A stretch of 32,000 bases of DNA from Microcystis aeruginosa NIES-2549 (lineage in GTDB: Bacteria; Cyanobacteriota; Cyanobacteriia; Cyanobacteriales; Microcystaceae): NCBI RefSeq assembly GCF_000981785.2, contig NZ_CP011304.1, forward strand, positions 3,630,001 to 3,662,000, in the 5' to 3' direction. Shown in pieces: positions 10,154-32,000 of this stretch; within the stretch, counting starts at the first letter, position 1, and each line of letters starts with the position of its first letter. The notes below the pieces were generated by a model. That model worked only from the letters and a program-made list of their open reading frames with translations. It was not told the origin of the DNA and made no database searches. The position numbers and the translations under genes were made by a program.

Positions 10154-11366
10154 TGGTGGTCTGTCAAGATGTTATTGACGGATACAATCTTTTTAATTTA
10201 ATTCGGGCATCTTCAGTGGTAAATCGCCAATCTACAGGAGCAGAATTTTCATTTCTGCGTTTTTCCCCAGCTGCTACTTCTTCTGTTAAGATTTCCTTGT
10301 CTTCAATACGCCGATCAAGGCACTGTCGGCTTAAAACACTCAACTCAATTTCAGCCATATTTAACCAACTTCCATGTTTAGGAGTATAATGAAACTCCAA
10401 TTTATCCAGAATGCGTCTTGCTTTGACTGGGGTAAAAGCTTGATAAAGAGATGCTTTGACATGAGTATTCAGATTATCTTGAACTACTTTAATTTTCTTG
10501 GCTTGAGGATGACGTTGAGCAACTAAATACTTCATTTGTTGGGCATAGTCAACAATCCTACGTTGGTCAGTAACTTCCATATATCTCCAACCCGTGAACG
10601 GCTCAAAAAACATGAATAAATTAGAAACTCCCTCTCGCTGATATTCATAATCAAAACGTTCGGACTTACCCGGTTCGGCAGCAATTGGCGAATTGATTTC
10701 TGAAATCAGTTGTTTTGAGGTCTCATCAAAACAAACTAAGGGATAATCTGGGTCATAGTTGCTGGTGTAAAGTTGTAACACTTCTGACCTTTGACAGACA
10801 AATTCGGCATTGGCTTGAGGTGGAATTACCCAAGATTCTTTTAACCAAGGTTTTATCTCGTTTTTTTTAAGACCTGTCGCACTGTTTCATAAGAAATGCT
10901 TTCTATGTATTCTAAAGTTACCATTTCCTCTGCCAGTAGTCGTAATGTCCAACGGTTATAACCTTGAGGCACTTGTGAGCAAGCCAGTGCGATTAAATGG
11001 GCTTCTGCTTCTCCGTCTATCTTTTTGAGCTTTAATGACTTTTTCGGACGAGGGTTAAGTGCATTTTCTAGGCTTTCTTCCACAAATCTTTGTCTGACTC
11101 TCTCAATGCTTCTGGTACTGATATTCAAGGCTTCACTGATTTGTTTATCTGTACAACCTCCATCGGGTTGATTGATATCTGCTTTCAGTAAAATTCGAGC
11201 ATGATTAATTTTTCTAGCGGAAGCTCTACCTGTTGTGGTTAGTTTGTTGAGACTCTTGCGTTCATCTTCAGTTAAGCAGACAATGTATTGTTTGGCTGGC
11301 ATTGTTTTTCGGGGTTAGCTTATTTACATTCCTATTATCCGACATAATTGCTTTGACAGACCACCA
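10154..11366 (-). mobile_element. IS630-family insertion sequence (~1.2 kb)
   Basis: Terminal inverted repeats TGGTGGTCTGTCAA (10154-10167) and TTGACAGACCACCA (11353-11366), with weaker similarity extending ~30 bp inward (TTAT..CGGATA). They enclose the IS630-type transposase. No clean TA duplication is visible on the left flank. Confidence 0.8.
10164..11302 (-). CDS. IS630-family DDE transposase, two frames joined by a -1 shift in an A8 run
   Basis: The HTH part 10853..11302 ends ...RQVLKKTR*. Slipping -1 in AAAAAAAA (T8 on plus strand, 10861-10868) gives ...VLKKNEIKPWLKESWVIPPQANAEFVCQRSEVLQLYTSNYD..., which continues into the DDE part (CFDETSKQL, VQDNLNTH, HGSWLNMAEIE) ending at 10164. 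Confidence 0.8.
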
Positions 11367-16611: not shown

Positions 16612-18522
16612 CTATTTGAACAATCTTAAACCGCTTAGAGTCACTAATACCGTCGATCCTTCATGACCGATAACACCCAGAGGTAAAGTTATATCACCGG
16701 CAAAATTGGCTATTAGCAATATGCCGATAAACGCGAGGGCGAAAGTGATATTCTGTTTAACGATGCGATTGGCACGACGACCAAGGTTAATCGCGCTGGG
16801 AATTTTGGCTAAATTATCGGACATAAGGATAATATCGGCCGTTTCCAAGGCCACATCACTACCAGCTTTTCCCATGGCAATCCCCACATTAGCCATAGCT
16901 AAAGCGGGCGCGTCATTAATGCCATCCCCCACCATAGCGACAGTGTGATATTTTTCTTGCAGATTTTGGATAACGCTTAACTTATCTTCTGGCAGTAAAT
17001 CAGCGTAAACTTCCTCAATACCGAGTTTTTCAGCGACTTGATCGGCACTTTGTTGATTATCACCCGTAATTAAAACGATATGTTCGATACCGATCTTTTT
17101 TAGCTGCTTCACCAGATTAACTGCCGATTCCCGCAGGGTATCGGCCACAGCGATCGCACCAAGTATCTGATTCTCTTGTACTACCCATACCAGGGTTTTG
17201 CCTTCTTTTTGTAAACGTTCGCGCATAGCTAGAATATTCTGGTCAAGATCAGTAATATGGTCACGAATATAGGCAAAATTGCCCACAGATACCGACTTAT
17301 CGGCAATTTTTCCCGTGATACCCCGTCCCGATACCGCTTGCACCTGATTAGCACTGAAGAAATTTATACCACGTTCCCTGGCTGTGGCGGTAATAGCGGA
17401 TCCGATGGGATGTTCCGAACAGGATTCTAGGGCTGCAGCCACCGCTAACACCTCATTTTCACTGACTGCATGGATAGGGATAATTTCCACCACTTGCAAC
17501 TTACCAAGGGTGAGAGTGCCGGTTTTATCAAAAGCGATCGCTCGTATGCGGCCGATCATCTCCAATCTTGCGCCATTTTTGAATAAAATCCCCTGTTTTG
17601 CGCCGTTAGCGATACCCGATAACAAAGCTGGCATAATTGAGGCCATTAAAGCACAGGGAGAGGCCACCACAAGAAAAATTAAGGCCCGATAGATAGTAGT
17701 TTCCCAGGTCCAACCCCAGAGAAAAGGCGGTAAAATCCCGAAAATTAAGCCCAAAATCACGATAATTTTCGCATAACCCCGCTCGAAACCTTCGATAAAC
17801 TCTTGGGAGGGAGGGGATTCATTTTGTGCTTTTTCTACCAAACGAATCACCCTCTCAATTAAGCGACTTTCGGGGGGAGTTTCCACCTTTAAACGTAGCA
17901 CTCCCGCACCGTTGAGAGTTCCCGCAAAGACTTCTTCACCGATGGTTTTATCCACGGGAAGGGATTCTCCGGTAATTGGCGCTTGATTGATGGGACTGTT
18001 TCCCTCCATAATAATGCCGTCAATGGGGATTAATTCACCCGGTTTGACCAAAACTGTGTCACCTATCCGTAATTGCTTGATAGGAACCTCTTTTTCCCTA
18101 TCTCCCGTGATTAATCTAGCAGTATCGGGAGTCATCGCCATGAGAGAACGAATATTGCGATCGGTTTTTGCCATGGCAATCTGTTCTAATGCACCACTAA
18201 TGGCGAAAATCAGGATTAAAACGGCTCCATCGATGATGAGATAGTAATTACTATCCCAGAGTCCCAAAATCGCCGCCCCCAAGGCCGCTACAATCATTAA
18301 CAGGTCCACATCCAGTTCTTTTTCCTCCCATAAAGTCGTCAATCCTGCTTGGGTACTCTCGTATCCTCCCACCAGATATGCGATCGCTAGTAGGATAAAA
18401 GCCGGGCCGATCAGATTAAGGTGTAGGCATAACCAACCAAAAAAGACTAAAATAGCGCAAATTCCTGCGGCAACTGCCGAGGAATACTCAGACAACCAAG
18501 AGGACGAGATACTCTGAATCAT
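16612..18522 (-). CDS. heavy-metal P1B-type ATPase, SPC / HEGxT subtype (CoaT-like, P1B-4)
   Basis: 636 aa with DKTGTLT, TGDN, GDGINDAP, the transmembrane SPC motif (VVASPCALM) and the C-terminal GHEGSTVLV. There is no N-terminal metal-binding domain. The stop lies 20 nt upstream of the hisS start, suggesting co-transcription. Confidence 0.9.
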   Translation of the reverse strand: MIQSISSSWLSEYSSAVAAGICAILVFFGWLCLHLNLIGPAFILLAIAYLVGGYESTQAGLTTLWEEKELDVDLLMIVAALGAAILGLWDSNYYLIIDGAVLILIFAISGALEQIAMAKTDRNIRSLMAMTPDTARLITGDREKEVPIKQLRIGDTVLVKPGELIPIDGIIMEGNSPINQAPITGESLPVDKTIGEEVFAGTLNGAGVLRLKVETPPESRLIERVIRLVEKAQNESPPSQEFIEGFERGYAKIIVILGLIFGILPPFLWGWTWETTIYRALIFLVVASPCALMASIMPALLSGIANGAKQGILFKNGARLEMIGRIRAIAFDKTGTLTLGKLQVVEIIPIHAVSENEVLAVAAALESCSEHPIGSAITATARERGINFFSANQVQAVSGRGITGKIADKSVSVGNFAYIRDHITDLDQNILAMRERLQKEGKTLVWVVQENQILGAIAVADTLRESAVNLVKQLKKIGIEHIVLITGDNQQSADQVAEKLGIEEVYADLLPEDKLSVIQNLQEKYHTVAMVGDGINDAPALAMANVGIAMGKAGSDVALETADIILMSDNLAKIPSAINLGRRANRIVKQNITFALAFIGILLIANFAGDITLPLGVIGHEGSTVLVTLSGLRLFK

Positions 18523-18607
18523 GGATCGATGGCAATTACTTTTCTCCCCATTCTAGAAAAAATTAGATCGATGCAGAAAACCCCTATGTGGTATTCACCG
18601 GTGCGAA

Positions 18608-18826
18608 GGCTCTCTTAGGTTTGCTGGTTAAAATGTATTCTAAGATACAGTCCTGCTGGCGAGGGAGTGGAAGGAACCACAGAGGCACAAAGGACACAAA
18701 GATCGATCACTACATTCAGTTAAACTGATCAGACAAAGAAGAGTGGAAGGAACCACAGAGGCACAAAGGACACAAAGATCGATCACTACATTCAGTTAAA
18801 CTGATCAGACAAAGAAGAAGAGAGCC
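18608..18826 (+). repeat. intergenic repeat, copy 2 (expanded)
   Basis: It has the same 5' ~90 nt and the same 3' ...AGAGAGCC end as 15181-15285, with extra internal sequence that includes a 2 x 76-bp tandem duplication. Confidence 0.75.
18665..18816 (+). repeat. perfect 2 x 76-bp tandem duplication
   Basis: GAGTGGAAGGAACCACAGAGGCACAAAGGACACAAAGATCGATCACTACATTCAGTTAAACTGATCAGACAAAGAA occurs at 18665-18740 and again at 18741-18816. Confidence 0.9.
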
Positions 18827-18836
18827 GTGCGAGTTA

Positions 18837-18923
18837 CGAGGAAGCGGAAAATTGGCTATTAGAGGACGAGTATGAACCCCGAAAGGGACGAATTTCGGCA
18901 GTAGAGATATAATTTCCTTATCT
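18837..18923 (+). repeat. 5' arm of the ~106-bp repeat that hosts intron copy 1 (3' arm at 21521-21538)
   Basis: CGAGGAAGCGGAAAATTGGCTATTAGAGGACGA...GGCAGTAGAGATATAATTTCCTTATCT is shared with 22091-22177. GAAGCGGAAA at the 5' end is complementary to TTTCCGCTT in the 3' arm. Confidence 0.6.
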
Positions 18924-21520
18924 GTGCGAAACGTTTAGGCATGAAATAGGGTTGAAATGCCTGAAATAACCGCCTAGTAAGGTCTTCAGTCCCCCGACTG
19001 AATCTAAGAGGTCAACCCAGACCAACCTTATAACTGTTTATATGTCCCGACGTTTAGTATCACCCGATACAAAATAGGCAAGGGGACTCAAGGTCAAAAC
19101 ACTTTGTAACAACTATTTACAATCGTTACAAAGGTGAGAGTAACGGCGATAGCCACCCCCAGTTTCAGAAGTCACAACCCTGAAATTGAAGCGGGGAACG
19201 GAAGGCTCCGAGGTGCAACCTAACACCAGCAGCGAGACCACTGCCAACAGCCCAGGATTAAGCGAAAGCTGAACGTCTGACATGAACCATCGTAACAATT
19301 AAGCAGTGAAATAAGGTTGACACACTGCGTTCAAAAGAACAAGGGGAATAAGTGAGGGACTTGATAAGCTACTCACACAGACCTTTTAAAGTACCCCGGT
19401 GGAAAAGACGAATCTAAAGGATGGAAAGCCCATATAAACGGAACGTGATAACCCCTTTCAGGCTCTGAGTATCGGTCGAAATACCCAGTAGTGAGAAGTG
19501 TAAGCGCAAGCCTTAAAGGGGGTGAGATGTAACCAAAAGCCAACGCTTGACGTTAATAGTCAAGATACGCTAACAGGTTACGGTTTGATTGTAAGGATAG
19601 AGTCTAGTAGGAGTCTATATGACGAAATCGAGAAAAGGTAAAGGGTTCGGGAAACCGAAAACCACTAAGACTACGAATGTATGGAAGGCTATCAATTGGG
19701 CGAAAGTCCAAAGATATGTCTTCAAGCTCCAAAAGAGGATATACCAAGCGGCTAAATCGGGACAGGATGCAAAGGTTAGAAGGTTGCAACGTCTATTGGT
19801 GAAATCGTACTACGCTCGTCTATTAGCGGTTCGCAAAGTAACCCAAGATAATCAAGGAAAGAAAACAGCAGGAGTTGATGGGAAGATAGTAATATCCCCA
19901 GAACAAAGGCTAAATCTAACCGAAGAAATTAAGGGAACACTTAAAGCAAAACCGTTAAGAAGGGTATGGATTCCTAAACCCGGCAGGGATGAAAAACGCC
20001 CATTAGGAATACCAACCATCAAAGACAGAGCTAGACAAGCGGTGATTAAATCGGCACTTGAACCAGAATGGGAAGCAAAAATGGAAGGAACCAGCTATGG
20101 TTTCCGACCCGGAAGGTCTGCCCATGACGCAATATCGAGGATATACCTCAGCATTAATAAGGGTAATTACTTTGTGTTAGATGCTGATATTGCCAAGTGT
20201 TTTGACCGAATTAATCACAACTTCCTACTGTCAAGAATTCATTGTCCCAGTGCCTTGAAAAGAGACATAAAACAATGGCTCAAAGCAGGAGTATTGGATA
20301 AAGGCGTATTTGAAGAAACAGAAACAGGGACACCACAAGGAGGGGTAATAAGTCCACTACTTGCTAACATCGCACTGGATGGAATGGCAAGATTAATCGA
20401 AACACTATTCCCCAAAAAGGGAAATGGTACAAATCAAGCTGTTTTAATAAGGTACGCCGATGATTTTGTGGTGATTTCACCTTCACTCGAAATCATTGAA
20501 CAGTGCAAAACTGCTATCTCCGAATGGTTAAAACCGATAGGATTAGAACTCAAACCAGAAAAAACCAGAGTGTGTCATACACTCAAACCCATTGAATATA
20601 ATGGAAAAACGGAAGAACCAGGATTTGACTTTCTAGGATTCAACATCAGACAATACCCAGCCGGAAAATATAAAGCGGGAAAAATATGTAAAGGAACACC
20701 CAAGACATTCCTAACACACATTAAACCTAGCCAAAAAGCAGTTAAAGCCCACACAGAAGCGATTAAAGGTGTAATCAAAAAACACAAAACCGCACCTCAA
20801 TCAGCCCTGATTAGTCGACTAAACCCAATCATAAGAGGATGGGGGAACTACTATTCAGGAGTAGTATCTATGGATACTTTCACAAAACTAGACCATACAA
20901 TCTGGTTGATGTTAAGGGCATGGACAGTATCAAGATGCAGAAAAGCGAACTACGAAAAGCTGAGAAATTACTTTAGACCGGGTACAGTTAAACTCAGCAA
21001 TGGGAAAGAAAGACAAGAATCCTGGTTATTTCAAACCAAAGACGGTCTCCACTTATGGCAACATAATTGGATACCAATTGTCAGACATACCTTAGCACGC
21101 TCCGACGCATCACCATTCGACGGAAATTGGACCTACTGGGCAACCAGAAGAGGACAAGCAATCGACACACCGACAAGAGTAGCCAAACTACTTAAGAAGC
21201 AACAAGGCAAGTGTAACCGATGTGGGCAATACTTCACCCCATCGGACTTAATTGAAGTTGACCACATCCACCCTCTCAGCCTAGGCGGAAAGGATGAATA
21301 TAAAAACCTTCAATTACTACACCGCCACTGTCATGATGAAAAATCAGCTTCAGATGGAAGCCTCGATATACCCACAAGACAAAGTATACAGGCAACCACA
21401 GAGAAGTCAAGCGGTATCCTTAACAAAGGAACAATCAAACTAGGAGCCGTGTGAGGTGAAAGTCTCAAGCACGGTTCTGAATGGGAGGGGAGGTCGGTGA
21501 CGACCTTCTCGACCCCTAAT
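18924..21520 (+). mobile_element. group II intron, copy 1 (2,597 nt, ORF-containing)
   Basis: The 5' end is GTGCG at 18924-18928. The IEP ORF starts ~695 nt in. A 34-nt domain V GAGCCGTGTGAGGTGAAAGTCTCAAGCACGGTTC lies at 21444-21477. A domain VI-like hairpin has a GTGA loop and an unpaired A 8 nt before the proposed 3' end ...CCCCTAAT (21520). Confidence 0.85.
19619..21454 (+). CDS. ltrA: group II intron-encoded protein: reverse transcriptase / maturase / HNH endonuclease
   Basis: 611 aa. RT blocks include PKPGRDEKRPLGIPTIKDR, FDRINH, GTPQGGVISPLLANI and YADDFVV. Maturase X motif RGWGNYY. C-terminal HNH CNRCGQ...VDHIHPLSLGG...LLHRHCH. Confidence 0.95.
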   Translation: MTKSRKGKGFGKPKTTKTTNVWKAINWAKVQRYVFKLQKRIYQAAKSGQDAKVRRLQRLLVKSYYARLLAVRKVTQDNQGKKTAGVDGKIVISPEQRLNLTEEIKGTLKAKPLRRVWIPKPGRDEKRPLGIPTIKDRARQAVIKSALEPEWEAKMEGTSYGFRPGRSAHDAISRIYLSINKGNYFVLDADIAKCFDRINHNFLLSRIHCPSALKRDIKQWLKAGVLDKGVFEETETGTPQGGVISPLLANIALDGMARLIETLFPKKGNGTNQAVLIRYADDFVVISPSLEIIEQCKTAISEWLKPIGLELKPEKTRVCHTLKPIEYNGKTEEPGFDFLGFNIRQYPAGKYKAGKICKGTPKTFLTHIKPSQKAVKAHTEAIKGVIKKHKTAPQSALISRLNPIIRGWGNYYSGVVSMDTFTKLDHTIWLMLRAWTVSRCRKANYEKLRNYFRPGTVKLSNGKERQESWLFQTKDGLHLWQHNWIPIVRHTLARSDASPFDGNWTYWATRRGQAIDTPTRVAKLLKKQQGKCNRCGQYFTPSDLIEVDHIHPLSLGGKDEYKNLQLLHRHCHDEKSASDGSLDIPTRQSIQATTEKSSGILNKGTIKLGAV

Positions 21521-21643
21521 TCCTTTCCGCTTTTCTTCAAAACCCTTATTCTGTATGCTGTTTAGCAAGAATTAGCGATCGCCGCTTAACCAACTCAGGC
21601 CCTAATAGGTAAAATATAAGCTGGGAGATTATAGTGAGAAGTT

Positions 21644-21850
21644 ATGAAGTTGACTGTAACACTTGACCGTGACGAGGATGGGGTTTGGGTTGTAGAATGC
21701 CCCAGTATTCCGGGTTGTGTCAGCCAAGGTCAAACGAGAGCAGAAGCTCTAGAAAATATCAGAGATGCGATTATCGCTTGCCTTGAAGTTCGTGCAGAAC
21801 GTGGACTACCGCTCACGATTGAAACTTGTCAAGTAGAGGTAATGGCCTAA
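21644..21850 (+). CDS. hicB: HicB-family antitoxin (UPF0150-type)
   Basis: 68 aa. MKLTVTLDRDEDGVWVVECPSIPGCVSQGQTRAEALENIRDAI is the HicB/UPF0150 N-terminal fold signature. The gene is immediately followed by hicA. Confidence 0.8.
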   Translation: MKLTVTLDRDEDGVWVVECPSIPGCVSQGQTRAEALENIRDAIIACLEVRAERGLPLTIETCQVEVMA

Positions 21851-21852
21851 TC

Positions 21853-22080
21853 ATGTCCTCTGCTCTTCCTGTTCTCAGCGGACGTGAAGTAGTCCGAATA
21901 TTTGAAACCTTTGGCTGGCAAGTTGCGCGTCAAAGTGGAAGCCATATCATTATGGTTAAGGAGGGTGAACAGGTAACACTCTCTGTTCCTGATCATCGTG
22001 AAGTGGCTAAAGGTACGCTTCGTAGTCTTATTCGTACTGCTGGAATTACTTTACAAGAATTTGTTTCTGGCATGAGATGA
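21853..22080 (+). CDS. hicA: HicA-family toxin (mRNA interferase)
   Basis: MSSALPVLSGREVVRIFETFGWQVARQSGSHIIMVKEGEQVTLSVPDHREVAKGTLRSLIR is typical of HicA/YcfA. I chose ATG 21853, 2 nt after the hicB stop, rather than the longer track ORF starting at 21826. Confidence 0.8.
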   Translation: MSSALPVLSGREVVRIFETFGWQVARQSGSHIIMVKEGEQVTLSVPDHREVAKGTLRSLIRTAGITLQEFVSGMR

Positions 22081-22090
22081 ACAAACAAGT

Positions 22091-22177
22091 CGAGGAAGCG
22101 GAAAATTGGCTATTAGAGGACGAATTTGAACCGGTAGAGGGACGACTTTCGGCAGTAGAGATATAATTTCCTTATCT
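22091..22177 (+). repeat. 5' arm of the host repeat for intron copy 2 (3' arm at 24775-24792)
   Basis: Collinear with 18837-18923 at a constant offset of 3,254 nt. Seven substitutions cluster in one 23-nt patch. Confidence 0.6.
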
Positions 22178-24774
22178 GTGCGAAACGTTTAGGCATGAAA
22201 TAGGGCTGAAATGCCTGAAATAACCGCCTAGTAAGGTCTTCAGTCCCCCGACTGAATCTAAGAGGTCAACCCAGACCAACCTTATAACTGTTTATATGTC
22301 CCGACGTTTAGTATCACCCGATACAAAATAGGCAAGGGGACTCAAGGTCAAAACACTTTGTAACAATTATTTACAATCGTTACAAAGGTGAGAGTAACGG
22401 CGATAGCCACCCCCAGTTTCAGAAGTCACAACCCTGAAATTGAAGCGGGGAACGGAAGGCTCCGAGGTGCAACCTAACACCAGCAGCGAGACCACTGCCA
22501 ACAGCCCAGGATTAAGCGAAAGCTGAACGTCTGACATGAACCATCGTAACAATTAAGCAGTGAAATAAGGTTGACACACTGCGTTCAAAAGAACAAGGGG
22601 AATAAGTGAGGGACTTGATAAGCTACTCACACAGACCTTTTAAAGTACCCCGGTGGAAAAGACGAATCTAAAGGATTGAAAGCCCATATAAACGGAACGT
22701 GATAACCCCTTTCAGGCTCTGAGTATCGGTCGAAATACCCAGTAGTGAGAAGTGTAAGCGCAAGCCTTAAAGGGGGTGAGATGTAACCAAAAGCCAACGC
22801 TTGACGTTAATAGTCAAGATACGCTAACAGGTTACGGTTTGATTGTAAGGATAGAGTCTAGTAGGAGTCTATATGACGAAATCGAGAAAAGGTAAAGGGT
22901 TCGGGAAACCGAAAACCACTAAGACTACGAATGTATGGAAGGCTATCAATTGGGCGAAAGTCCAAAGATATGTCTTCAAGCTCCAAAAGAGGATATACCA
23001 AGCGGCTAAATCGGGACAGGATGCAAAGGTTAGAAGGTTGCAACGTCTATTGGTGAAATCGTACTACGCTCGTCTATTAGCGGTTCGCAAAGTAACCCAA
23101 GATAATCAAGGAAAGAAAACAGCAGGAGTTGATGGGAAGATAGTAATATCCCCAGAACAAAGGCTAAATCTAACCGAAGAAATTAAGGGAACACTTAAAG
23201 CAAAACCGTTAAGAAGGGTATGGATTCCTAAACCCGGCAGGGATGAAAAACGCCCATTAGGAATACCAACCATCAAAGACAGAGCTAGACAAGCGGTGAT
23301 TAAATCGGCACTTGAACCAGAATGGGAAGCAAAAATGGAAGGAACCAGCTATGGTTTCCGACCCGGAAGGTCTGCCCATGACGCAATATCGAGGATATAC
23401 CTCAGCATTAATAAGGGTAATTACTTTGTGTTAGATGCTGATATTGCCAAGTGTTTTGACCGAATTAATCACAACTTCCTACTGTCAAGAATTCATTGTC
23501 CCAGTGCCTTGAAAAGAGACATAAAACAATGGCTCAAAGCAGGAGTATTGGATAAAGGCGTATTTGAAGAAACAGAAACAGGGACACCACAAGGAGGGGT
23601 AATAAGTCCACTACTTGCTAACATCGCACTGGATGGAATGGCAAGATTAATCGAAACACTATTCCCCAAAAAGGGAAATGGTACAAATCAAGCTGTTTTA
23701 ATAAGGTACGCCGATGATTTTGTGGTGATTTCACCTTCACTCGAAATCATTGAACAGTGCAAAACTGCTATCTCCGAATGGTTAAAACCGATAGGATTAG
23801 AACTCAAACCAGAAAAAACCAGAGTGTGTCATACACTCAAACCCATTGAATATAATGGAAAAACGGAAGAACCAGGATTTGACTTTCTAGGATTCAACAT
23901 CAGACAATACCCAGCCGGAAAATATAAAGCGGGAAAAATATGTAAAGGAACACCCAAGACATTCCTAACACACATTAAACCTAGCCAAAAAGCAGTTAAA
24001 GCCCACACAGAAGCGATTAAAGGTGTAATCAAAAAACACAAAACCGCACCTCAATCAGCCCTGATTAGTCGACTAAACCCAATCATAAGAGGATGGGGGA
24101 ACTACTATTCAGGAGTAGTATCTATGGATACTTTCACAAAACTAGACCATACAATCTGGTTGATGTTAAGGGCATGGACAGTATCAAGATGCAGAAAAGC
24201 GAACTACGAAAAGCTGAGAAATTACTTTAGACCGGGTACAGTTAAACTCAGCAATGGGAAAGAAAGACAAGAATCCTGGTTATTTCAAACCAAAGACGGT
24301 CTCCACTTATGGCAACATAATTGGATACCAATTGTCAGACATACCTTAGCACGCTCCGACGCATCACCATTCGACGGAAATTGGACCTACTGGGCAACCA
24401 GAAGAGGACAAGCAATCGACACACCGACAAGAGTAGCCAAACTACTTAAGAAGCAACAAGGCAAGTGTAACCGATGTGGGCAATACTTCACCCCATCGGA
24501 CTTAATTGAAGTTGACCACATCCACCCTCTCAGCCTAGGCGGAAAGGATGAATATAAAAACCTTCAATTACTACACCGCCACTGTCATGATGAAAAATCA
24601 GCTTCAGATGGAAGCCTCGATATACCCACAAGACAAAGTATACAGGCAACCACAGAGAAGTCAAGCGGTATCCTTAACAAAGGAACAATCAAACTAGGAG
24701 CCGTGTGAGGTGAAAGTCTCAAGCACGGTTCTGAATGGGAGGGGAGGTCGGTGACGACCTTCTCGACCCCTAAT
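22178..24774 (+). mobile_element. group II intron, copy 2 (2,597 nt)
   Basis: Same boundaries as copy 1 (GTGCG at 22178, ...CCCCTAAT at 24774). I saw only three substitutions in the 695 nt 5' of the ORF. The IEP translation is identical. Confidence 0.85.
22873..24708 (+). CDS. ltrA: group II intron-encoded RT/maturase/HNH protein (identical to 19619..21454)
   Basis: The 611-aa translation is identical to copy 1 in the ORF track. Confidence 0.95.
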   Translation: MTKSRKGKGFGKPKTTKTTNVWKAINWAKVQRYVFKLQKRIYQAAKSGQDAKVRRLQRLLVKSYYARLLAVRKVTQDNQGKKTAGVDGKIVISPEQRLNLTEEIKGTLKAKPLRRVWIPKPGRDEKRPLGIPTIKDRARQAVIKSALEPEWEAKMEGTSYGFRPGRSAHDAISRIYLSINKGNYFVLDADIAKCFDRINHNFLLSRIHCPSALKRDIKQWLKAGVLDKGVFEETETGTPQGGVISPLLANIALDGMARLIETLFPKKGNGTNQAVLIRYADDFVVISPSLEIIEQCKTAISEWLKPIGLELKPEKTRVCHTLKPIEYNGKTEEPGFDFLGFNIRQYPAGKYKAGKICKGTPKTFLTHIKPSQKAVKAHTEAIKGVIKKHKTAPQSALISRLNPIIRGWGNYYSGVVSMDTFTKLDHTIWLMLRAWTVSRCRKANYEKLRNYFRPGTVKLSNGKERQESWLFQTKDGLHLWQHNWIPIVRHTLARSDASPFDGNWTYWATRRGQAIDTPTRVAKLLKKQQGKCNRCGQYFTPSDLIEVDHIHPLSLGGKDEYKNLQLLHRHCHDEKSASDGSLDIPTRQSIQATTEKSSGILNKGTIKLGAV

Positions 24775-24793
24775 TCCTTTCCCCCTTTCTTCG

Positions 24794-27700
24794 ATGCTAT
24801 CCTTACTAAAAAAGCTCTGGAATTGGCTAAAATCGCTCTTTATTGCCAGTCCAAAGGCAATTAACCCCAAAGAAGTCAAAAATACTCCTCCAGAACCCAG
24901 CGATGGGGAATATGAAGGGATATTGATGGGGTTATTCGAGCAGGTGGCGGCGGGAACCACTACCGGCGGGTTACGGGGATGGCTATACAGTCGCCATTGT
25001 GACGATAAAAAGCTGGCGCGGTGGTTAGAGGTCAAAAGCGAGGAATGGCTACAGTATCCGGAAGATTATCAAACTTTAGGGCGGGATCTGGCGGCTTTAG
25101 GGAAGGTGATGACGGGAAATCTGGGGGAAGTGTCCCAACGGATTAGCCTCCAGTTACGCGACGCGGTGAGGGATGTTTCCGGTGTGGAGGGGGAAAATCT
25201 ATGCCCAAAGGAGACGGATTTAACGGAAGTGGTTCAGGATGCCGAATTCTGGTTTGAGCAAGGAAACCAGAAATACATGAATGGGGATTTTATCGGCGAG
25301 ATCGCATCCTACGATCAAGCTTTAGAATTTAAACCCGATGACCCTGATGCTTGGAACAACCGAGGGGTTGCGTTAGGTAATTTAGGCAGATTTGAACAAG
25401 CGATCGCATCCTTTGATCGAGCTTTAGAAATTAAACCCGATTACCATCAAGCTTGGGACAACCGAGGGATTGCGTTGCATAAATTAGGCAGATTTGAACA
25501 AGCGATCGCATCCTACGATCGAGCTTTAGAATTTAAACCCGATTTCCATGAAGCTTGGATCAACCGAGGGGTTGCGTTAGGTAATTTAGGCAGATTTGAG
25601 GAAGCGATCGCATCATATGATCGAGCTTTAGAAATTAAACCCGATTTACATCAAGCTTGGTACAACCGAGGGATTGCGTTAAGGAATTTAGGCAGATTAG
25701 CAGAAGCGATCGCATCCTACGATCGAGCTTTAGAAATTAAACCCGATGACCATGAAGCTTGGAACAACCGAGGGATTGCGTTAAGGGATTTAGGCAGATT
25801 AGAAGAAGCGATCGCATCCTACGATCGAGCTTTAGAAATTAAACCCGATTTCCATGAAGCTTGGTACAACCGAGGGATTGCGTTAGGTAATTTAGGCAGA
25901 TTAGAAGAAGCGATCGCATCCTACGATCAAGCTTTAGAATTTAAACCCGATAAGCATGAAGCTTGGAACAACCGAGGGATTGCGTTAGGTAATTTAGGCA
26001 GATTGGCAGAAGCGATCGCATCCTATGATCGAGCTTTAGAAATTAAACCCGATGACCATGATGCTTGGAACAACCGGGGGGTTGCGTTAGCTGATTTAGG
26101 CAGATTTGAACAAGCGATCGCATCTTATGATCGAGCTTTAGAAATTAAACCCGATTTCCATCTAGCTTGGTACGGCCGAGGGTGGGCCGTTTGTTCTCTG
26201 AGTAAAAATCGCGTTTCTACTCCCAGTCTAGAAGCTCTCATTTACCGTAAACCGATAGTAGCCCTTAATGACCGAGAACCCCATATTTTCGCCCTCCGGG
26301 AGGCACTTACCCACCTCATTCAAGGATCGCCTCCGTGGGGGCAAATTTATCGCTATCTAGGGGAAGCTTATCTGAAACATTCCCAGTATAAAGAGAATGC
26401 TAGTCCCTATTGGCGCGAAGCGATCCGACATTATCAAATCGCTTTACCGATTCTCAGCGAAAAAGACTTCCCCGAAGATCATTTAGAAATTCTGCAAGGA
26501 TTGATCCGCGCTCATCTTTCCCTACAGGAAATCCCTGAAGCGCGATTCTATCAACAACAGGGGCGCCACCTTTTTACCAGACTACGCGCCCAGAAACGCG
26601 ATAAACCGGCTTTTGAGAGAAAATTCAGCAGTTTTAGTCACCTAGAAATCGATTTACTGATCGAGGAAAATCATCCTCTAGACGCAATTGAACAGGCAGA
26701 ATTTTATAAAAATCGTTGTTTGACTTGGATTCTCGATAATTGGCAAGAAAACCCCACCAGTCCCGATTATGCCACTATCCAAAGCCTGACAGGTCCGAAT
26801 AAGGCGATTATTTACTGGTATCTCAGCGAGGACAATCTCACCACCTTTATTATCACCCCAGAGGCTGATCCCGTCATTGTCGAGCCAGAACAACGCCGTC
26901 AACCAGCGCGACAGTTTCGGACTTGGTTAACTGAATGGGATAAACAATACCTTGACTATGCCAGTAAAAAAGAAACGGAGAATAAACAAAATCACCCCTG
27001 GAGATTGTCACTTAACAGCCGTTTTGCCCAATTAAAGCGGATTTTACAGATCGATAAAATTCTCGAACCTTTGCCAGTTTCCGTTGATTCCCTGATTCTC
27101 ATCCCCCACCGGGATCTGCACCGCTTCCCCCTACATACCCTCTTCCCCGAAAAATACACCGCCACCTATCTCCCCTCTGCTCAGGTCGGTTTGCGTCCCC
27201 AGTCCGGCGATTCCTCCTATTCTCCCCTCCTCAGCGTCGAAGACCCCAAAACGGAACAAAAACCCATGGATTTCGCCCAACTGGAATCAGCGATTATTAG
27301 CCATATCCTGCAACCGAGCCAGAGAATTAGCACGAAAAAGGCCTCACGGGAAAACGTCCGCAACGCCCTCGAAAATGCCCATAAAACCTTTCATTTCACC
27401 GGTCATGGCTATTATGACTCTTTTCGCCCCCAAGCCTCTGCGATCGCCCTTAGCGATGGCTTATTGACCGTCCGGGATATCCGTGCGCTGAACCTCTCTA
27501 GTTACCGTCTCGTCTGTCTGGCTGCCTGTGAAACCGCTCTCACCGGTAAGGATGGCATTACTACCGAATACGTCGGCCTCGTCAGTGCTTTCTTGGCAGC
27601 CGGTGCGACTAATGTGGTCAGTACCCTCTGGCCGGTGAAGGAGATTTCTAGTGCTTGGTTTATGATTAACTTCTATCAAAGATTATTAGCGGGTGAATCC

Positions 27701-27934
27701 CCGGCCCTAGCTCTGAAAAATACACAAAATTGGTTAAAAAATATCACTTGGCAGCAACTAGCTAACTGGATCGAGCAACTTGGACAACTTCCCGACCTAA
27801 TGGAATGGGTCGATCGACTGGAGGCGCGGGCGGCGAATATTTTAAAGGAAGGCAGTACAATAGGGCTAGATCAGCTAACAGAATACAGTGATCCTTACTA
27901 TTGGGCAGCCTATACCCTGACTGGACAGGACTAA
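24794..27934 (+). CDS. TPR-repeat protein with C-terminal CHAT (caspase-like) protease domain
   Basis: 1,046 aa with ~10 TPR units (consensus AWNNRGIALGNLGRLEEAIASYDRALEIKPD). The C-terminal region carries a caspase-type His (FHFTGHGYYD) and Cys (LVCLAACETALTG), as in CHAT domains. Confidence 0.9.
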   Translation: MLSLLKKLWNWLKSLFIASPKAINPKEVKNTPPEPSDGEYEGILMGLFEQVAAGTTTGGLRGWLYSRHCDDKKLARWLEVKSEEWLQYPEDYQTLGRDLAALGKVMTGNLGEVSQRISLQLRDAVRDVSGVEGENLCPKETDLTEVVQDAEFWFEQGNQKYMNGDFIGEIASYDQALEFKPDDPDAWNNRGVALGNLGRFEQAIASFDRALEIKPDYHQAWDNRGIALHKLGRFEQAIASYDRALEFKPDFHEAWINRGVALGNLGRFEEAIASYDRALEIKPDLHQAWYNRGIALRNLGRLAEAIASYDRALEIKPDDHEAWNNRGIALRDLGRLEEAIASYDRALEIKPDFHEAWYNRGIALGNLGRLEEAIASYDQALEFKPDKHEAWNNRGIALGNLGRLAEAIASYDRALEIKPDDHDAWNNRGVALADLGRFEQAIASYDRALEIKPDFHLAWYGRGWAVCSLSKNRVSTPSLEALIYRKPIVALNDREPHIFALREALTHLIQGSPPWGQIYRYLGEAYLKHSQYKENASPYWREAIRHYQIALPILSEKDFPEDHLEILQGLIRAHLSLQEIPEARFYQQQGRHLFTRLRAQKRDKPAFERKFSSFSHLEIDLLIEENHPLDAIEQAEFYKNRCLTWILDNWQENPTSPDYATIQSLTGPNKAIIYWYLSEDNLTTFIITPEADPVIVEPEQRRQPARQFRTWLTEWDKQYLDYASKKETENKQNHPWRLSLNSRFAQLKRILQIDKILEPLPVSVDSLILIPHRDLHRFPLHTLFPEKYTATYLPSAQVGLRPQSGDSSYSPLLSVEDPKTEQKPMDFAQLESAIISHILQPSQRISTKKASRENVRNALENAHKTFHFTGHGYYDSFRPQASAIALSDGLLTVRDIRALNLSSYRLVCLAACETALTGKDGITTEYVGLVSAFLAAGATNVVSTLWPVKEISSAWFMINFYQRLLAGESPALALKNTQNWLKNITWQQLANWIEQLGQLPDLMEWVDRLEARAANILKEGSTIGLDQLTEYSDPYYWAAYTLTGQD
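25343..26158 (+). repeat. 8 x 102-bp near-identical tandem repeats (coding TPR units 2-9)
   Basis: Units start at 25343, 25445, 25547, 25649, 25751, 25853, 25955 and 26057. Each contains ...GCGATCGCATCCTA(C/T)GATC(G/A)AGCTTTAGAA(A/T)TTAAACCCGAT.... Confidence 0.9.
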
Positions 27935-27937
27935 CTT

Positions 27938-28477
27938 ATGGAAATCCCCAAAGCAATTATCGATCTTGAAGCGCTGCTAATCGCCCTCGCACAGCAGACT
28001 GAACCTTTGCCAGAATATCTACAGCGATCGCTCAAAGAAATTGAACGATTATTAAGGGAAGAACAACCCCAGGCAGCAACACAATTGCGGCAACTTGTCA
28101 AGGATTTTCCCCCCCTAGAAAAAGCTTATAAAAAAGCGATCGAAGAGTTAGACGCAGCCTATGCTAACCAAGAATGCGCCAAAAGTTTAAGCGTCACTTT
28201 TCCCGATAGTTTAGATTTCGAGGCCCTATTTATTAATGATGTTATTCCTAGCCAAGATTGGGTAAAAACTGCCCAAAAATTAGCCCGATCCCCCCTTGAT
28301 CGCGAGGGTGCTGATTCCCCTCGATTTTGGGATAAAGCCGATCGCCTGATGGTGGTAACGGTGGGAGGTGCAGCCCTAGGGGGATCGATTGCGGGAGTTT
28401 ATGGCGCGGTTATTGGTGCGATATTAGCGGCCGGCTGCGGATGGTATATTACCTTTAGGAAAGCAAAATCAGCATAA
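27938..28477 (+). CDS. hypothetical protein with C-terminal glycine-zipper transmembrane helix
   Basis: The ATG lies 3 nt after the CHAT gene stop. 179 aa with a helical, charged N-terminal ~135 aa, then VVTVGGAALGGSIAGVYGAVIGAILAAGCGWYITFRKAK (repeated GxxxG). Confidence 0.65.
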   Translation: MEIPKAIIDLEALLIALAQQTEPLPEYLQRSLKEIERLLREEQPQAATQLRQLVKDFPPLEKAYKKAIEELDAAYANQECAKSLSVTFPDSLDFEALFINDVIPSQDWVKTAQKLARSPLDREGADSPRFWDKADRLMVVTVGGAALGGSIAGVYGAVIGAILAAGCGWYITFRKAKSA

Positions 28478-28484
28478 ATTTTTG

Positions 28485-28793
28485 ATGAAGATTGTTAACA
28501 TTGAAAACTTTCTTTTGTTAATCGGAACCTTGGTTATTACCGCAAGCGTGGCGCTGGTTACAAAAAAACAGCCAAGACGGGGAAACAATAAATCTTATCT
28601 AGAAATTCTTTTTGTTTCTGGGTTAAGTTTATCGGCTGTATTGGCAATATCTAAGGTGGTCTATAAAGTGTTAACTGATGAAAATTTTCAGAATTGCCTT
28701 GGCTCGGATAGTCAAATCCTTCTTTTGTTAGCTGCTGTTCTCGGTATCTTTATTTCTATTCAAGAGATTTGTAAATTATTTGAAGCGAAGTAA
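28485..28793 (+). CDS. small integral membrane protein (about three TM helices)
   Basis: ATG 28485 (the track ORF starts at TTG 28482) lies 7 nt after the preceding stop. Three hydrophobic segments: FLLLIGTLVITASVALV, ILFVSGLSLSAVLAI, ILLLLAAVLGIFISI. Confidence 0.55.
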   Translation: MKIVNIENFLLLIGTLVITASVALVTKKQPRRGNNKSYLEILFVSGLSLSAVLAISKVVYKVLTDENFQNCLGSDSQILLLLAAVLGIFISIQEICKLFEAK

Positions 28794-28826
28794 TAGGAAT
28801 GCCAGCTTTATCCATATCCAAAAGTT

Positions 28827-28848
28827 ATACTAAATCCTGTTGAGAAGG
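28827..28848. repeat. solo MITE terminus (ATACTAAATCCTGTTGAGAAGG)
   Basis: It matches the reverse complement of the right end of the 7344-7438 element (ATACTAAATCCGTTGAGTATAGG). No partner terminus was found nearby. Confidence 0.45.
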
Positions 28849-28852
28849 TTTT

Positions 28853-29118
28853 GATCCCCCCTTGATCCCCCCTTAATAAGGGGGGCGCTGATCCCCCCTT
28901 GATCCCCCCTTAATAAGGGGGGCGCTGATCCCCCCTTGATCCCCCCTTAATAAGGGGGGCGCTGATCCCCCCTTGATCCCCCCTTAATAAGGGGGGCGCT
29001 GATCCCCCCTTGATCCCCCCTTAATAAGGGGGGCGCTGATCCCTCCTTGATCCTAGGGTTGATTCATTGTAGGGTTGATTCATGAATCAACCCTACTACC
29101 CTTAATAAGGGGGGTGCT
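28853..29118 (+). repeat. 37-bp tandem array: five perfect units plus a sixth unit split by an insertion
   Basis: The unit GATCCCCCCTTGATCCCCCCTTAATAAGGGGGGCGCT starts at 28853, 28890, 28927, 28964 and 29001. The sixth is GATCCCTCCTTGATCC (29038-29053) ... CCCTTAATAAGGGGGGTGCT (29099-29118). Each unit holds a CCCCCC-TTAATAA-GGGGGG hairpin. Confidence 0.9.
29054..29098. mobile_element. palindromic mini-element inserted in the sixth 37-bp unit
   Basis: TAGGGTTGATTCAT + TG + TAGGGTTGATTCATGAATCAACCCTAC + TA. The core palindrome GTAGGGTTGATTCATGAATCAACCCTAC (29069-29096) belongs to the same family as 5866-5893. Confidence 0.6.
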
Positions 29119-29147
29119 GATGATTTTTAACACCTACCTACTTAAAA

Positions 29148-29924
29148 CTACATTCCCATAATTTCGTAACCGGAATCTACATAAATAATCTGACCGGTAA
29201 TACCACTAGCAAGATCACTGGCTAAAAAAGCGGCCGTATTTCCCACCTCAATTTGTGTCACCGTGCGATGTAAAGGAGCGATTTCTTCCACATGATGGAT
29301 CATATCAAGAATTCCCCCCACGGCCGAAGATGCTAAGGTGCGAATTGGACCGGCGGAAATACCATTAACTCGGATCTTTTGGCCACCTAATTCGGCGGCT
29401 AAATAGCGAACACTCATTTCTAAACCAGCTTTTGCCACCCCCATTAAATTATAGTTAGGAATTACCTTGACACCGCCGAGATAGGTAAGAGTGATAATAC
29501 TTCCCCCTTCCGTCATCAAAGGTTTAGCCGATCGAGCTAGACGGGTTAGGGAAAAAGTGCTAATATCTAGGGATTTAGTGAAAGCTTCCCGAGGGATGGC
29601 GGTAAAATCGCCCGTTAAACCCTCTTTATCGGCAAAAGCGAGACAGTGAATCAAAATATCCAGTTTACCCCATTTTTCCGCCACTGTAGCGAAAGTATCT
29701 TCTACCTGTTGGTCATTTTGGACATCGCAGGGGACATAAAAAGCGGGATTAAGTTCATCGGCCAATTCTCGCACTTTTTTCTCAAAACGGCCCTTTTCGT
29801 CGGGGAGATAGGTGACACCGATATTTGCACCAGCTTGATGGAGTTGTTGGGCAATTCCCCAAGCGATCGAGCGATTATTGGCAATTCCCGTCACTAGGGC
29901 GTTTTTTCCCGTTAAATCTAACAT
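29148..29924 (-). CDS. fabI: enoyl-[acyl-carrier-protein] reductase (NADH) FabI
   Basis: MLDLTGKNALVTGIANNRSIAWGIAQQLH... is the canonical FabI N-terminus. At 258 aa from ATG 29924 it has the normal size. The track ORF extends 38 codons further upstream, probably spuriously. Confidence 0.93.
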   Translation of the reverse strand: MLDLTGKNALVTGIANNRSIAWGIAQQLHQAGANIGVTYLPDEKGRFEKKVRELADELNPAFYVPCDVQNDQQVEDTFATVAEKWGKLDILIHCLAFADKEGLTGDFTAIPREAFTKSLDISTFSLTRLARSAKPLMTEGGSIITLTYLGGVKVIPNYNLMGVAKAGLEMSVRYLAAELGGQKIRVNGISAGPIRTLASSAVGGILDMIHHVEEIAPLHRTVTQIEVGNTAAFLASDLASGITGQIIYVDSGYEIMGM

Positions 29925-30138
29925 AGTTCTCGTTTCTCTTACAAAAATCTCCCCAATAGCCGACCCCAGCGAGATTCGGTATAATAGGGATACAGATAAC
30001 GGGGCAGCAATGATCACCCCTCCCCCATTGTCTGGCAAAAAGCGCCCAAAACTTTTCCCAGTTTAGGCAGCGGTTGTGTTTAATAGAGGTGACACTCGTT
30101 GCATAATAAAAACAATTTTCCCCTTTTTTGGATGTGAG

Positions 30139-30816
30139 ATGGACTTATCCCTAATACAAGACAAACCCCTAGCAGATGTGTTCCGTCGAATCGGCAGCGG
30201 CAATTTCCCCCCGGTGGTGGAATTGTTCGAGCGTGGCAAAACGATCTTTTTCCCTGGAGATCCCGCCGAAAGAGTCTATTTTTTGCTGAAAGGAGCCGTT
30301 AAGTTGTCGCGAGTCTATGAAGCGGGAGAGGAAATTACCGTGGCTCTACTGCGGGAAAATAGCGTCTTTGGTGTGCTATCCTTACTCACCGGCCAGCGAT
30401 CGGATCGTTTTTATCATGCTGTGGCTTTTACTCCGGTAGAATTACTCTCGGCCCCGATCGATCAGGTAGAAAGATCCCTGCGCAATAATCCCGATTTATC
30501 AATGTTGATGTTGCAGGGGTTGTCCTCGCGGATTCTGCAAACGGAAATGATGATCGAAACCTTGGCTCACCGGGATATGGGTTCCCGTTTGGTCAGTTTT
30601 TTATTGATTCTCTGTCGTGATTTTGGGGTTCCCACCACCGATGGCATCCGGGTGGATCTAAAATTGTCTCACCAAGCGATCGCAGAGGCGATCGGTTCTA
30701 CCCGCGTCACTGTCACCCGTTTATTGGGAGAGCTGCGGGATCAGGAAATGGTCTCAATTCACAAGAAGAAAATTACCGTCCATAATCCCGTCGCTCTCAG
30801 TCAACAATTTACCTAA
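30139..30816 (+). CDS. ntcA: global nitrogen regulator NtcA (CRP/FNR family)
   Basis: [19 protein letters not shown]...[46 protein letters not shown]...[12 protein letters not shown]...[11 protein letters not shown]. At 225 aa it matches the NtcA length and HTH. I chose ATG 30139 over the track's GTG 30076. Confidence 0.95.
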
Positions 30817-30823
30817 ATTCTGG

Positions 30824-32000
30824 ATGACTAGCGCTTATATTTTGGTTTTGGCCATCGTGGTTTTAGGTGGTCTGATAGCGGCTGTTGGCGATCGCATAGG
30901 GAGCCGTATCGGTAAGAAAAGGATGCGTTTATTTAATCTGCGTCCGAAACAAACCGCAACTTTAATGACGATTGTAACGGGAATTTTGATCGCCGGTTCG
31001 ACTTTAATCGTCTTGTTTGCTTCTAGTAAATCCCTGCGTCAAGGGGTTTTTGAACTGGATCGCCTTTTAAATGAACGTCGTGCCGCTATTAAGGATTTGG
31101 AAAGTCAGGTAAGAAAAACCACCGAACAAAAAAATCAGGTGGAAAAGGCGTTAAAAACGGCTAAAAGTGAACAGATAGCCGTGCAGAAACGTCTAGAGGT
31201 TCTTAACAAAAATTATCAAGCTTCTCGTCAACGTTTGCGATTAGTTTCGGGACAGTTGGAAAAGTTTCGGAAGGAAGTGGCTAATTTAAACAATGAACGA
31301 GTTATTTTAACTAATCAAAAGGCACAGTTAACCAGTCAACGGGATCAATTGTTCCAACAAAAATCAATTCTTTCTGGTCAGATAAATCAACTACAAACCA
31401 CCGTTAAAGTTAGAGATAAAGAGTTAGCTAATCAACAAAAGTTATTAACGGCCAGACAAGCGCGACTTCAACAGTTAGAAACCCAGCAAAAAACCCTACA
31501 GCTAGAAATTGATCGCCGGGATCAACGTATTGGAGAACTCGATAGCTCGATCGTCGATAAAAATTTAGCTTTGGAACAGCGCGAGGGAAAATTAAAAGAT
31601 TTAGAGACCCAAATGGCTTTTCTTAAGCGGGAAGTGGAAGTTTTAGAACAATACTATCAAACCTATCAAGAATTGCGGGAAAAACAAATCGCTATTTTCC
31701 GGGGACAGGTGTTATCTTTTGGAGCTTTTCGTATTGTTGATCCCCAAGCTATTGTCACCGTTATCGATAAGTTATTGCGAGAAGCGAATATAAATGCTAT
31801 CCGTGCCACCCAACCGAATCAGCCTAATTTTGACCAGCGTTTAGTTAAGATCACAAAAGCACAGGTAGAACAGTTAAGTCAACAATTACAGGACGGTAAA
31901 GAATATGTGGTGAGAATTCTTTCAGCAGGTAATTATGTCTTAGGAGAAACCGAGATTCGTGTCTTTGCTGATGTGGTTCCCAATCAAAGAGTTTTTGAGG
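30824..32000 (+). CDS. DUF3084-like membrane-anchored coiled-coil protein (3' end beyond window)
   Basis: ATG 30824 opens a frame that runs to the window end. MTSAYILVLAIVVLGGLIAAVGDRIGSRIGKKRMRLFNLRPKQTATLMTIVTGILIAGSTL is followed by ~250 aa of Q/K/E/L-rich coiled coil. Confidence 0.65.
   Translation, partial: MTSAYILVLAIVVLGGLIAAVGDRIGSRIGKKRMRLFNLRPKQTATLMTIVTGILIAGSTLIVLFASSKSLRQGVFELDRLLNERRAAIKDLESQVRKTTEQKNQVEKALKTAKSEQIAVQKRLEVLNKNYQASRQRLRLVSGQLEKFRKEVANLNNERVILTNQKAQLTSQRDQLFQQKSILSGQINQLQTTVKVRDKELANQQKLLTARQARLQQLETQQKTLQLEIDRRDQRIGELDSSIVDKNLALEQREGKLKDLETQMAFLKREVEVLEQYYQTYQELREKQIAIFRGQVLSFGAFRIVDPQAIVTVIDKLLREANINAIRATQPNQPNFDQRLVKITKAQVEQLSQQLQDGKEYVVRILSAGNYVLGETEIRVFADVVPNQRVFE

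Follow-up and report, generated by a model that had tools for sequence, protein, structure and literature searches.

A conserved cyanobacterial gene cassette joining a TPR-CHAT protease to two small-protein families

In a 32,000-nucleotide (nt) stretch of Microcystis aeruginosa NIES-2549 (contig NZ_CP011304.1, positions 3,630,001 to 3,662,000; "the window" from here on), a gene for a large TPR-CHAT protease is followed by two short genes, and we find that these three genes form a cassette that is conserved across cyanobacteria, co-inherited and tightly spaced. The three open reading frames (ORFs) are on the forward strand. ORF1 (24794..27934) encodes the protease, with 1046 amino acids (aa); ORF2 (27938..28477) encodes a 179-aa protein with a head, a linker and a glycine-zipper hairpin; and ORF3 (28485..28793) encodes a small membrane protein with three hydrophobic helices, 102 aa long counted from its ATG, or 103 aa from an alternative TTG start at 28482. 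The ORFs are separated by 3 nt (ORF1-ORF2) and 7 nt (ORF2-ORF3), exactly as described in an earlier reading of this DNA from the sequence only, which had proposed an uncharacterised conflict module in which the protease cuts ORF2 to release a toxic helix. The conserved, uncharacterised module of that reading is strongly supported by the linkage reported below; the toxic helix is not. Neither the cassette nor its two small-protein families appear to have been described before, and the literature that we searched yielded no published description of any of them.

The ORF2 family extends well beyond Microcystis. Word-indexed searches with ORF2 or ORF3 alone report matches in Microcystis only, as does a scan of genome contigs with a narrow ORF2 alignment. 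With an ORF2 profile, exhaustive searching by HMMER reports 140 representative clusters, of which about 45 are full length, and a second profile search names hosts in Nostoc, Calothrix, Leptolyngbya, Chamaesiphon, Acaryochloridaceae, Pseudanabaenaceae and Thermoleptolyngbya. All the named members are annotated "hypothetical", and none has a Pfam domain. We scanned the genomic contexts of the divergent members with home-made hidden Markov models (HMMs) for CHAT, ORF2, ORF3, the N-terminal domain of ORF1 (NTD) and the middle domain of ORF1 (MID). An orthologous TPR-MID-CHAT gene is found immediately 5' of the ORF2 head in 14/16 independent lineages, at a spacing of -4 to +31 nt; in most cases there is a gap of 3 nt or an overlap of 4 nt. 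The third position is taken by an ORF3-family gene in 14 of the lineages carrying the ORF2 head. Linkage to CHAT genes was the test that the sequence-only reading had set beforehand for its hypothesis, and the linkage is there. The flanking genes vary by lineage (clpB/holA, a guanylate cyclase, ureE, efp/accB, a plasmid), and because the linkage holds while the flanks differ, the cassette is self-contained. The third gene is homologous across lineages though too divergent for word searches, since an HMM built from six distant third-gene products matches the ORF3 of the window with an E-value of 5e-14 among 293 window ORFs.

Within Microcystis, dN/dS (the ratio of nonsynonymous to synonymous substitution rates) is 0.23-0.46 for the three cassette genes versus 0.03-0.04 for the adjacent fabI and ntcA, and the cassette genes are thus under purifying but relaxed selection. 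The reading frames of ORF2 and ORF3 stay open throughout Microcystis strains, with a dN/dS of 0.46 each; together with the distant cyanobacterial homologues, this identifies them as real genes and not chance ORFs. A tblastn search with a family member finds nothing in phage records, and a single match in plasmids. In two loci (L002 8930-9242 and L003 2841-3153), ORF3 is followed by two short ORFs of 80 and 45 aa with weak matches to the ORF2 head (E-values 3e-5 and 1e-4), which look like a decayed second copy.

ORF1 is, from its sequence, a genuine CHAT protease with an intact His871/Cys912 dyad. An exact-sequence look-up identifies its product as AKE66033.1/WP_046663081.1, for which the sole annotation on record is "TPR domain protein, putative component of TonB system". 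The Pfam CHAT family (PF12770) matches aa 761-1045 with 146.6 bits against a gathering cut-off of 24 (E-value 1.3e-42), and many Pfam TPR families match at aa ~150-470. The CHAT domain occupies 26771..27931, with the catalytic codons at 27404-27406 (His871) and 27527-27529 (Cys912). The motifs FHFTGH(871)G and AAC(912)ET line up with the catalytic CHG and ACET motifs of the Csx29 structures, and both residues are invariant in 14 orthologue segments and invariant or nearly so across orthologues. We built an AlphaFold2 (AF2) model of full ORF1 from 14 sequences, which is good for the NTD, the TPR array and the MID domain, and poor for the CHAT domain. The N-terminal region (24794..25183) is predicted to be helical (residues 2-17 and 37-128, with a predicted local distance difference test score, pLDDT, of about 77-87): aa 1-17 make up an amphipathic helix that is basic and Trp-rich, and aa ~37-128 the helical bundle that we name NTD. 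The first ~130 aa have no Pfam match at E<1, so the region remains unassigned, as had been said of it; it is a helical domain that belongs to part of the family only, kept in L002, L011, L018 and L020 and absent from L023-L029. The TPR array (25220..26206) has 9 units plus a capping helix, with pLDDT >90; the units are one fewer than the approximately ten reported before. Eight of the 9 units are near-identical (80% mean pairwise aa identity), and Tandem Repeats Finder describes the array DNA as a 102-nt repeat with 8.7 copies and 88% matches. The number of TPR copies differs among strains, and the length of ORF1 ranges from 837 to 1080 aa within Microcystis. What had been taken for a ~330-aa linker is instead a conserved helical domain, MID (26279..26770), which leads into the beta strands that open the protease fold. 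The MID HMM matches every orthologue with E-values from 1e-66 to 1e-142, and the AF2 model has pLDDT of about 87-96 at aa 500-600. We find no transmembrane segment or evident signal peptide in ORF1.

ORF2 consists of three parts, which we describe from an AF2 model that used a 42-sequence alignment and from conservation. The head (27938..28186) is modelled as a four-helix bundle at aa 10-82, with pLDDT of about 90. The most conserved head motif in the family, Y-x-x-Q-E-R-x-K-S, is at the end of helix 4, and it is directly followed by a low-confidence loop (aa 84-90). The next part (28187..28324) comprises two shorter helices and a linker that is disordered (low pLDDT at aa 120-141). The C-terminal membrane module (28325..28477) has an FWDKADR motif and then a glycine-zipper helical hairpin, modelled at aa 130-177. 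The glycine-zipper C-terminus of ORF2 and the three hydrophobic segments of ORF3 are thus both present as first described. Codon 80 of the window allele (28175-28177) is TGC, which encodes Cys, in contrast to the Arg present in more than 90% of the family; among 118 Microcystis ORF2 clusters, 99 have R and 19 have C. The Cys80 allele occurs across several linker-length variants. The linker accommodates 0-5 in-frame copies of a 21-aa unit, resulting in proteins of 179, 194, 215, 236 and 257 aa, and these repeats originate from a Microcystis palindromic DNA repeat. In the window, the linker (28280-28310) holds the core of a palindromic repeat family with G/C runs that is also seen 3' of the cassette. 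In other Microcystis strains, the repeat unit reads SPLPPLIRGVPTGGGIPLD.. and appears in 1-5 copies in ORF2 proteins of 194-257 aa, as in L006 8340-8420.

Neither small protein resembles anything in the libraries that we searched. ORF2 and ORF3 have no match in Pfam, NCBIfam or PADLOC. A Foldseek comparison of the ORF2 model with the PDB gives no fold match (best E-value 2.8), and the ORF2 profile finds nothing meaningful among PDB sequences, where the top match is the GGA1 GAT domain at an E-value of 0.05. The ORF3 profile finds among PDB sequences only a 24-residue match to a nitrile hydratase subunit (E-value 9e-4), which is not meaningful. The ORF2 family does not reach the gathering score of Pfam Gly-zipper_Omp, Gly-zipper_YMGG or Rick_17kDa_Anti; Gly-zipper_Omp is matched by 1 of 42 family members with an E-value of 0.005, a likeness of composition and motif only. 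Two other leads were dropped. Matches of ORF2 aa 26-75 in giant proteins fall on TPR_12/TPR_10 repeats, and they reflect the resemblance of helical hairpins and not a shared domain. The ORF1 NTD and the ORF2 head show no relation by hhalign (probability 0.8%), and a homotypic, EAD-like adaptor pairing of the two is therefore rejected.

ORF2 is made of two modules that travel independently, such that the head goes with CHAT and the tail goes with ORF3. The ORF2-type tail, a glycine zipper with the motif FWDKxDR, also occurs alone or at the C-terminus of Ser/Thr kinases, of an HTH_25 protein (L038), of a CHAT-TIR protein and of a phycobiliprotein-like protein. Where the tail has no ORF2 head, an ORF3-family gene is next in 4/5 examined contexts, with E-values of 1e-20 to 1e-34, and none is found at L032. 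Over all tail-bearing genes, an ORF3-family gene is directly 3' in 18/21 lineages; the exceptions are L032 and a subtype found in L001 and L030. In that subtype (L001 1924-3485, L030 3-998), ORF2 has an extension of ~100 aa after the membrane hairpin, and the third gene encodes an unrelated membrane protein of ~236 aa, which is not of the ORF3 family. The head can also go without the tail: in the Planktothrix agardhii plasmid p4, the TPR-CHAT orthologue is followed by a 130-aa head-only ORF2 protein (E-value 4e-21) that keeps the ERxK residues.

Two of the other tail contexts are worth describing. In L031 (5383-6471), psaA-psaB is directly followed by the gene for a 264-aa protein that has a phycobiliprotein-like domain (Pfam Phycobilisome, E-value 8e-7) and ends in an ORF2-type glycine-zipper module, and an ORF3-family gene is next; the 264-aa protein may be a membrane-tethered phycobiliprotein paralogue. 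In L036 (4001-5869) and L037 (2526-4394), a 523-aa protein combines a short CHAT-like domain, a TIR domain and an ORF2-type C-terminal module. An ORF3-family gene follows, there are transposase and resolvase genes nearby, and the CHAT-TIR gene with its ORF3-family neighbour looks like a separate candidate conflict gene pair.

The attachment of tail and ORF3 to kinases, HTH, CHAT-TIR and phycobiliprotein-like proteins points to a generic membrane anchor or sensor and not to a latent toxin. It disfavours the proposed pro-effector role of ORF2, in which cleavage would release the glycine-zipper helix as a toxin, as does the fact that the part of ORF2 tied to CHAT is the N-terminal head, which occurs with CHAT without the membrane tail. 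ORF3 had been proposed as a partner or an immunity protein: it stands as a partner of ORF2, and we find no support for an immunity role.

The explanation that we favour, and to which we give about an even chance of being right, is that ORF2 and ORF3 are a membrane unit in which the cytosolic head of ORF2 recruits and regulates the TPR-CHAT protease, with proteolysis perhaps occurring between head and anchor. The binding of ORF1 to ORF2, the cleavage and the nature of the signal are what we infer. The TPR-CHAT cysteine protease would be cytosolic and would work with the two-protein unit of ORF2 and ORF3, for which the C-terminal glycine-zipper hairpin of ORF2 would lie in the membrane alongside ORF3. 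The ORF2 head would be a dedicated partner of the protease, either a substrate, a pseudosubstrate or an adaptor, and by binding the protease it would keep it at the membrane. A signal arriving via the membrane unit, via the variable TPR array or via both would then turn on proteolysis. The cut might fall on the C-terminal side of Arg80, a nearly invariant residue where helix 4 ends and the best candidate by analogy with the CHAT protease HetF, which cleaves PatU3 after Arg117 (PMC9457339). Such a cut might uncouple the head, and the protease with it, from the membrane. Candidate outputs are stress or developmental signalling, or phage defence.

Several observations weigh against this explanation. 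ORF2 and ORF3 occur without an intact CHAT gene in two lineages: L014 has no CHAT gene, and L022 has a 72-aa CHAT remnant only, adjoining what appears to be an inserted VapBC-like pair (a reading of the sequences without a profile test). This persistence implies that the membrane pair may function by itself. The window allele and 19/118 Microcystis clusters have a Cys for the candidate P1 Arg80 next to an intact protease, so that either the cut is not made at Arg80, or the strains with Cys can do without cleavage or carry a cleavage-resistant variant. The AF2 model of the ORF1 CHAT domain is poor, with pLDDT of 30-60. Lastly, an anchor role and a sensor role of the membrane unit are not separable by sequence.

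A different view of the same modules starts from the tail. The hairpin with the FWDKxDR motif and the ORF3-family protein could be a portable and previously unrecognised sensor unit of membrane state with interchangeable outputs, a possibility that we hold tentatively and with more doubt than belief. If so, the outputs would be Ser/Thr kinases, HTH regulators, TIR, and TPR-CHAT by way of the ORF2 head, and the cassette of the window would be the version with a protease output, a caspase-like switch that senses membrane damage or phage. Information would then run from the membrane to the protease, opposite to the direction in the earlier model.

A conflict or defence role for the cassette is plausible, because its genes have about ten times the evolutionary rate of the adjacent genes, the TPR copy number is variable, and toxin-antitoxin genes are often close by (HicA in the window; further cases in L016, L018, L022 and L023). 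These same facts speak for abortive infection, in which a phage is sensed by the TPRs and ORF2 is cut by CHAT, releasing a glycine-zipper peptide that permeabilises the membrane with or without ORF3. We consider this outcome unlikely. It gains from the service of CHAT proteases in defence (Csx29, and a weak PADLOC match to BovA with an E-value of 1.3e-12), from the glycine-zipper character of the tail with scattered sub-threshold matches to Gly-zipper_Omp, Bacteriocin_IIc and C19orf12, from the one copy on a plasmid and from the CHAT-TIR protein that bears the same tail. However, a latent toxin would be odd on Ser/Thr kinases, on an HTH protein or on a phycobiliprotein-like protein by psaAB, and the CHAT linkage tracks the ORF2 head, not the tail. 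The cassette also has one fixed site in all eight Microcystis genomes examined, and ORF2 and ORF3 match no PADLOC system, nor does tblastn with a family member find a match in phage records.

Cleavage could serve gene expression instead. In an arrangement like that of anti-sigma factors or Csx30, the ORF2 head would sequester a cytoplasmic factor at the membrane, and the CHAT cut would free it and alter expression. ORF2 resembles anti-sigma factors in layout, with a helical bundle, then a linker and a membrane anchor; DdvA has a 3-helix anti-sigma bundle, a transmembrane helix and a TPR-CHAT in a single chain (PMC11506125), and the HTH_25 head found on the same anchor in L038 suits a tethered regulator. 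All the same we regard this arrangement as improbable: in none of the lineages examined is a gene for a sigma factor or another regulator conserved beside the cassette, and ORF2 is unlike any solved sequence or fold, in libraries for which the presence of anti-sigma domains and Csx30 was not checked. To the same low degree we believe in a securin-like inhibitor or chaperone, for which the ORF2 head would be a pseudosubstrate that keeps a separase-like CHAT inactive and membrane-bound, the true substrates being recognised by the TPRs. The tight spacing with overlapping stop and start codons suggests a stoichiometric complex, and the R80C allele is more easily tolerated in a binder than in an obligate cleavage site. 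Aravind and Koonin are said to have placed CHAT in the separase-related branch of the caspase fold in 2002. Left unexplained by an inhibitor is the persistence of ORF2 and ORF3 after the loss of CHAT in L014 and L022. These three rivals overlap in that all of them require a direct interaction between ORF1 and the ORF2 head.

We rate the cassette as belonging with a known theme, that of a caspase-like protease with a dedicated partner, for which the EACC1-caspase pair is the nearest concept and DdvA is the nearest architecture. The EACC1-caspase two-gene membrane system was described by Kaur, Burroughs, Iyer and Aravind in 2020 (PMC7159879). Like the cassette, it combines a caspase-superfamily peptidase with a small membrane protein that has a helix rich in small and glycine residues, and there the small protein is proposed to be a membrane sensor and not a mere anchor (PMC7159879). 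The small gene of EACC1 systems precedes the peptidase gene, whereas the cassette has two partner genes, both 3'. EACC1 peptidases have an N-terminal caspase domain with variable C-terminal effectors, whereas in ORF1 the CHAT domain is C-terminal after the TPRs; and their hosts are mainly actinobacteria and proteobacteria, those of the cassette cyanobacteria. We do not assign the cassette to EACC1, given the reversed gene and domain order and the lack of a Pfam match for ORF2 or ORF3 (in a Pfam copy whose inclusion of an EACC1 model is unconfirmed). DdvA of Myxococcus xanthus (PDB 8ROT) also has a small helical bundle, a membrane span and a TPR-CHAT (PMC11506125), and ORF1 matches the 8ROT chain with an E-value of 1.8e-5. 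All of these parts are in one chain in DdvA, and on separate proteins in the cassette. The TPR-CHAT of DdvA is periplasmic with an incomplete active site, whereas the ORF1 dyad is complete; a cognate extracytoplasmic function (ECF) sigma gene is adjacent to DdvA (PMC11506125), whereas no locus of the cassette that we examined has a sigma gene.

Csx29, the protease of the type III-E Craspase, has in common with ORF1 a TPR and CHAT with a His/Cys dyad, catalytic motifs that align (phmmer E-value of about 1e-6), and a dedicated small partner encoded nearby, which for Csx29 is Csx30. ORF1 is not a Csx29: the NCBIfam model NF041237 gives it 62.5 bits against a cut-off of 300, and none of Cas7-11 (gRAMP), Csx30, Csx31 or RpoE is found among the scanned window ORFs or the related loci. 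Unlike in Craspase, the partner in the cassette is predicted to be membrane-anchored, and ORF2 has no similarity to any solved structure. In the cyanobacterium Anabaena, the CHAT protease HetF has a single specific small substrate, PatU3, which it cuts after an Arg (PMC9457339). Members of the ORF2 family have a nearly invariant Arg-x-Lys where the head ends, and the window ORF2 has its Cys at the candidate position; HetF and ORF1 are compared here as analogues, and the ORF2 and ORF3 profiles match no described family. For Borvo, the PADLOC model of BovA matches the CHAT part of ORF1 only (model positions 509-706 of 711). We reject this identity, as the match is partial and not full length; Borvo is moreover a single gene, and the cassette has three genes conserved together. 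A bacterial gasdermin with its protease is rejected as well, as ORF2 and ORF3 have no Pfam match and the all-helical ORF2 model has no fold match in the PDB. The cassette matches no catalogued defence system in PADLOC, in agreement with the distinct architecture first suggested for it.

The cassette has the same site, between hicA and fabI-ntcA, in all 8/8 Microcystis genomes examined. In the window, a HicA toxin gene is upstream, and 3' of the cassette there is a 37-nt palindromic tandem repeat, followed by a convergent fabI-like gene and an ntcA-type regulator. The gene order hicA-ORF1-ORF2-ORF3-fabI-ntcA is retained in seven other Microcystis genomes, within the reach of each contig. The 37-nt repeat has 5.5 copies at 28852-29053 and contains CCCCCCTTAATAAGGGGGG palindromes; two overlapping ARAGORN calls of tRNA-Asn(att) at 28872-29027 are artefacts of this repeat. 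The absence of cas and gasdermin-like genes from the window, asserted before, stands for the window ORFs that were scanned for these families, with several ORFs of at least 90 aa outside the scan. There is no CRISPR-like direct-repeat array near the module (tandem repeats scanned in 18000-32000, direct repeats in 18000-25200), and the promoter and terminator scans give scores no better than those of shuffled sequence.

Between the HicA gene and ORF1 of the window is a 2.6-kb group II intron (22178..24774, forward strand), with an Rfam RF00029 match at 24696-24774 and a reverse-transcriptase ORF at 22873-24708 that has reverse transcriptase, maturase and HNH domains. It is inserted 19 nt 5' of the ORF1 start, inside the 5' leader of the cassette and just 3' of a TATAAT-like box. 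Because the site is empty in other Microcystis strains (L005, L007), this intron is a strain-specific passenger outside the module. It is the second of two copies in the window (18924-21520 and 22178-24774), which are 99.6% identical, each with a 611-aa reverse transcriptase/maturase/HNH ORF, and each within a duplicated target of ~105 nt (87 nt on the 5' side and 18 nt on the 3' side). The first copy is closely preceded by a perfect 76-nt tandem duplication (18665-18816). On the reverse strand, there are a truncated IS605 OrfB-type transposase gene (1074-1721) and a DDE_3 transposase gene (10164-10781). Two transposase genes and two introns in the window mark this part of the chromosome as one with many mobile elements.

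TPR-CHAT proteins abound in cyanobacteria, as they do in other multicellular or colonial bacteria. To our knowledge, a substrate or partner has been identified for just a few of them (Csx29, HetF and DdvA). The cassette supplies a large orthologous group of TPR-CHAT proteins with a specific, co-inherited partner, which makes questions about partners and substrates directly testable. Microcystis aeruginosa forms toxic blooms, for which phage defence and programmed cell death are ecologically relevant. The cassette also defines two protein families without annotation, one of which is a reusable membrane module common to kinases, TIR proteins and phycobiliprotein-like proteins, and this module bears on how signalling enzymes are tethered or gated at cyanobacterial membranes.

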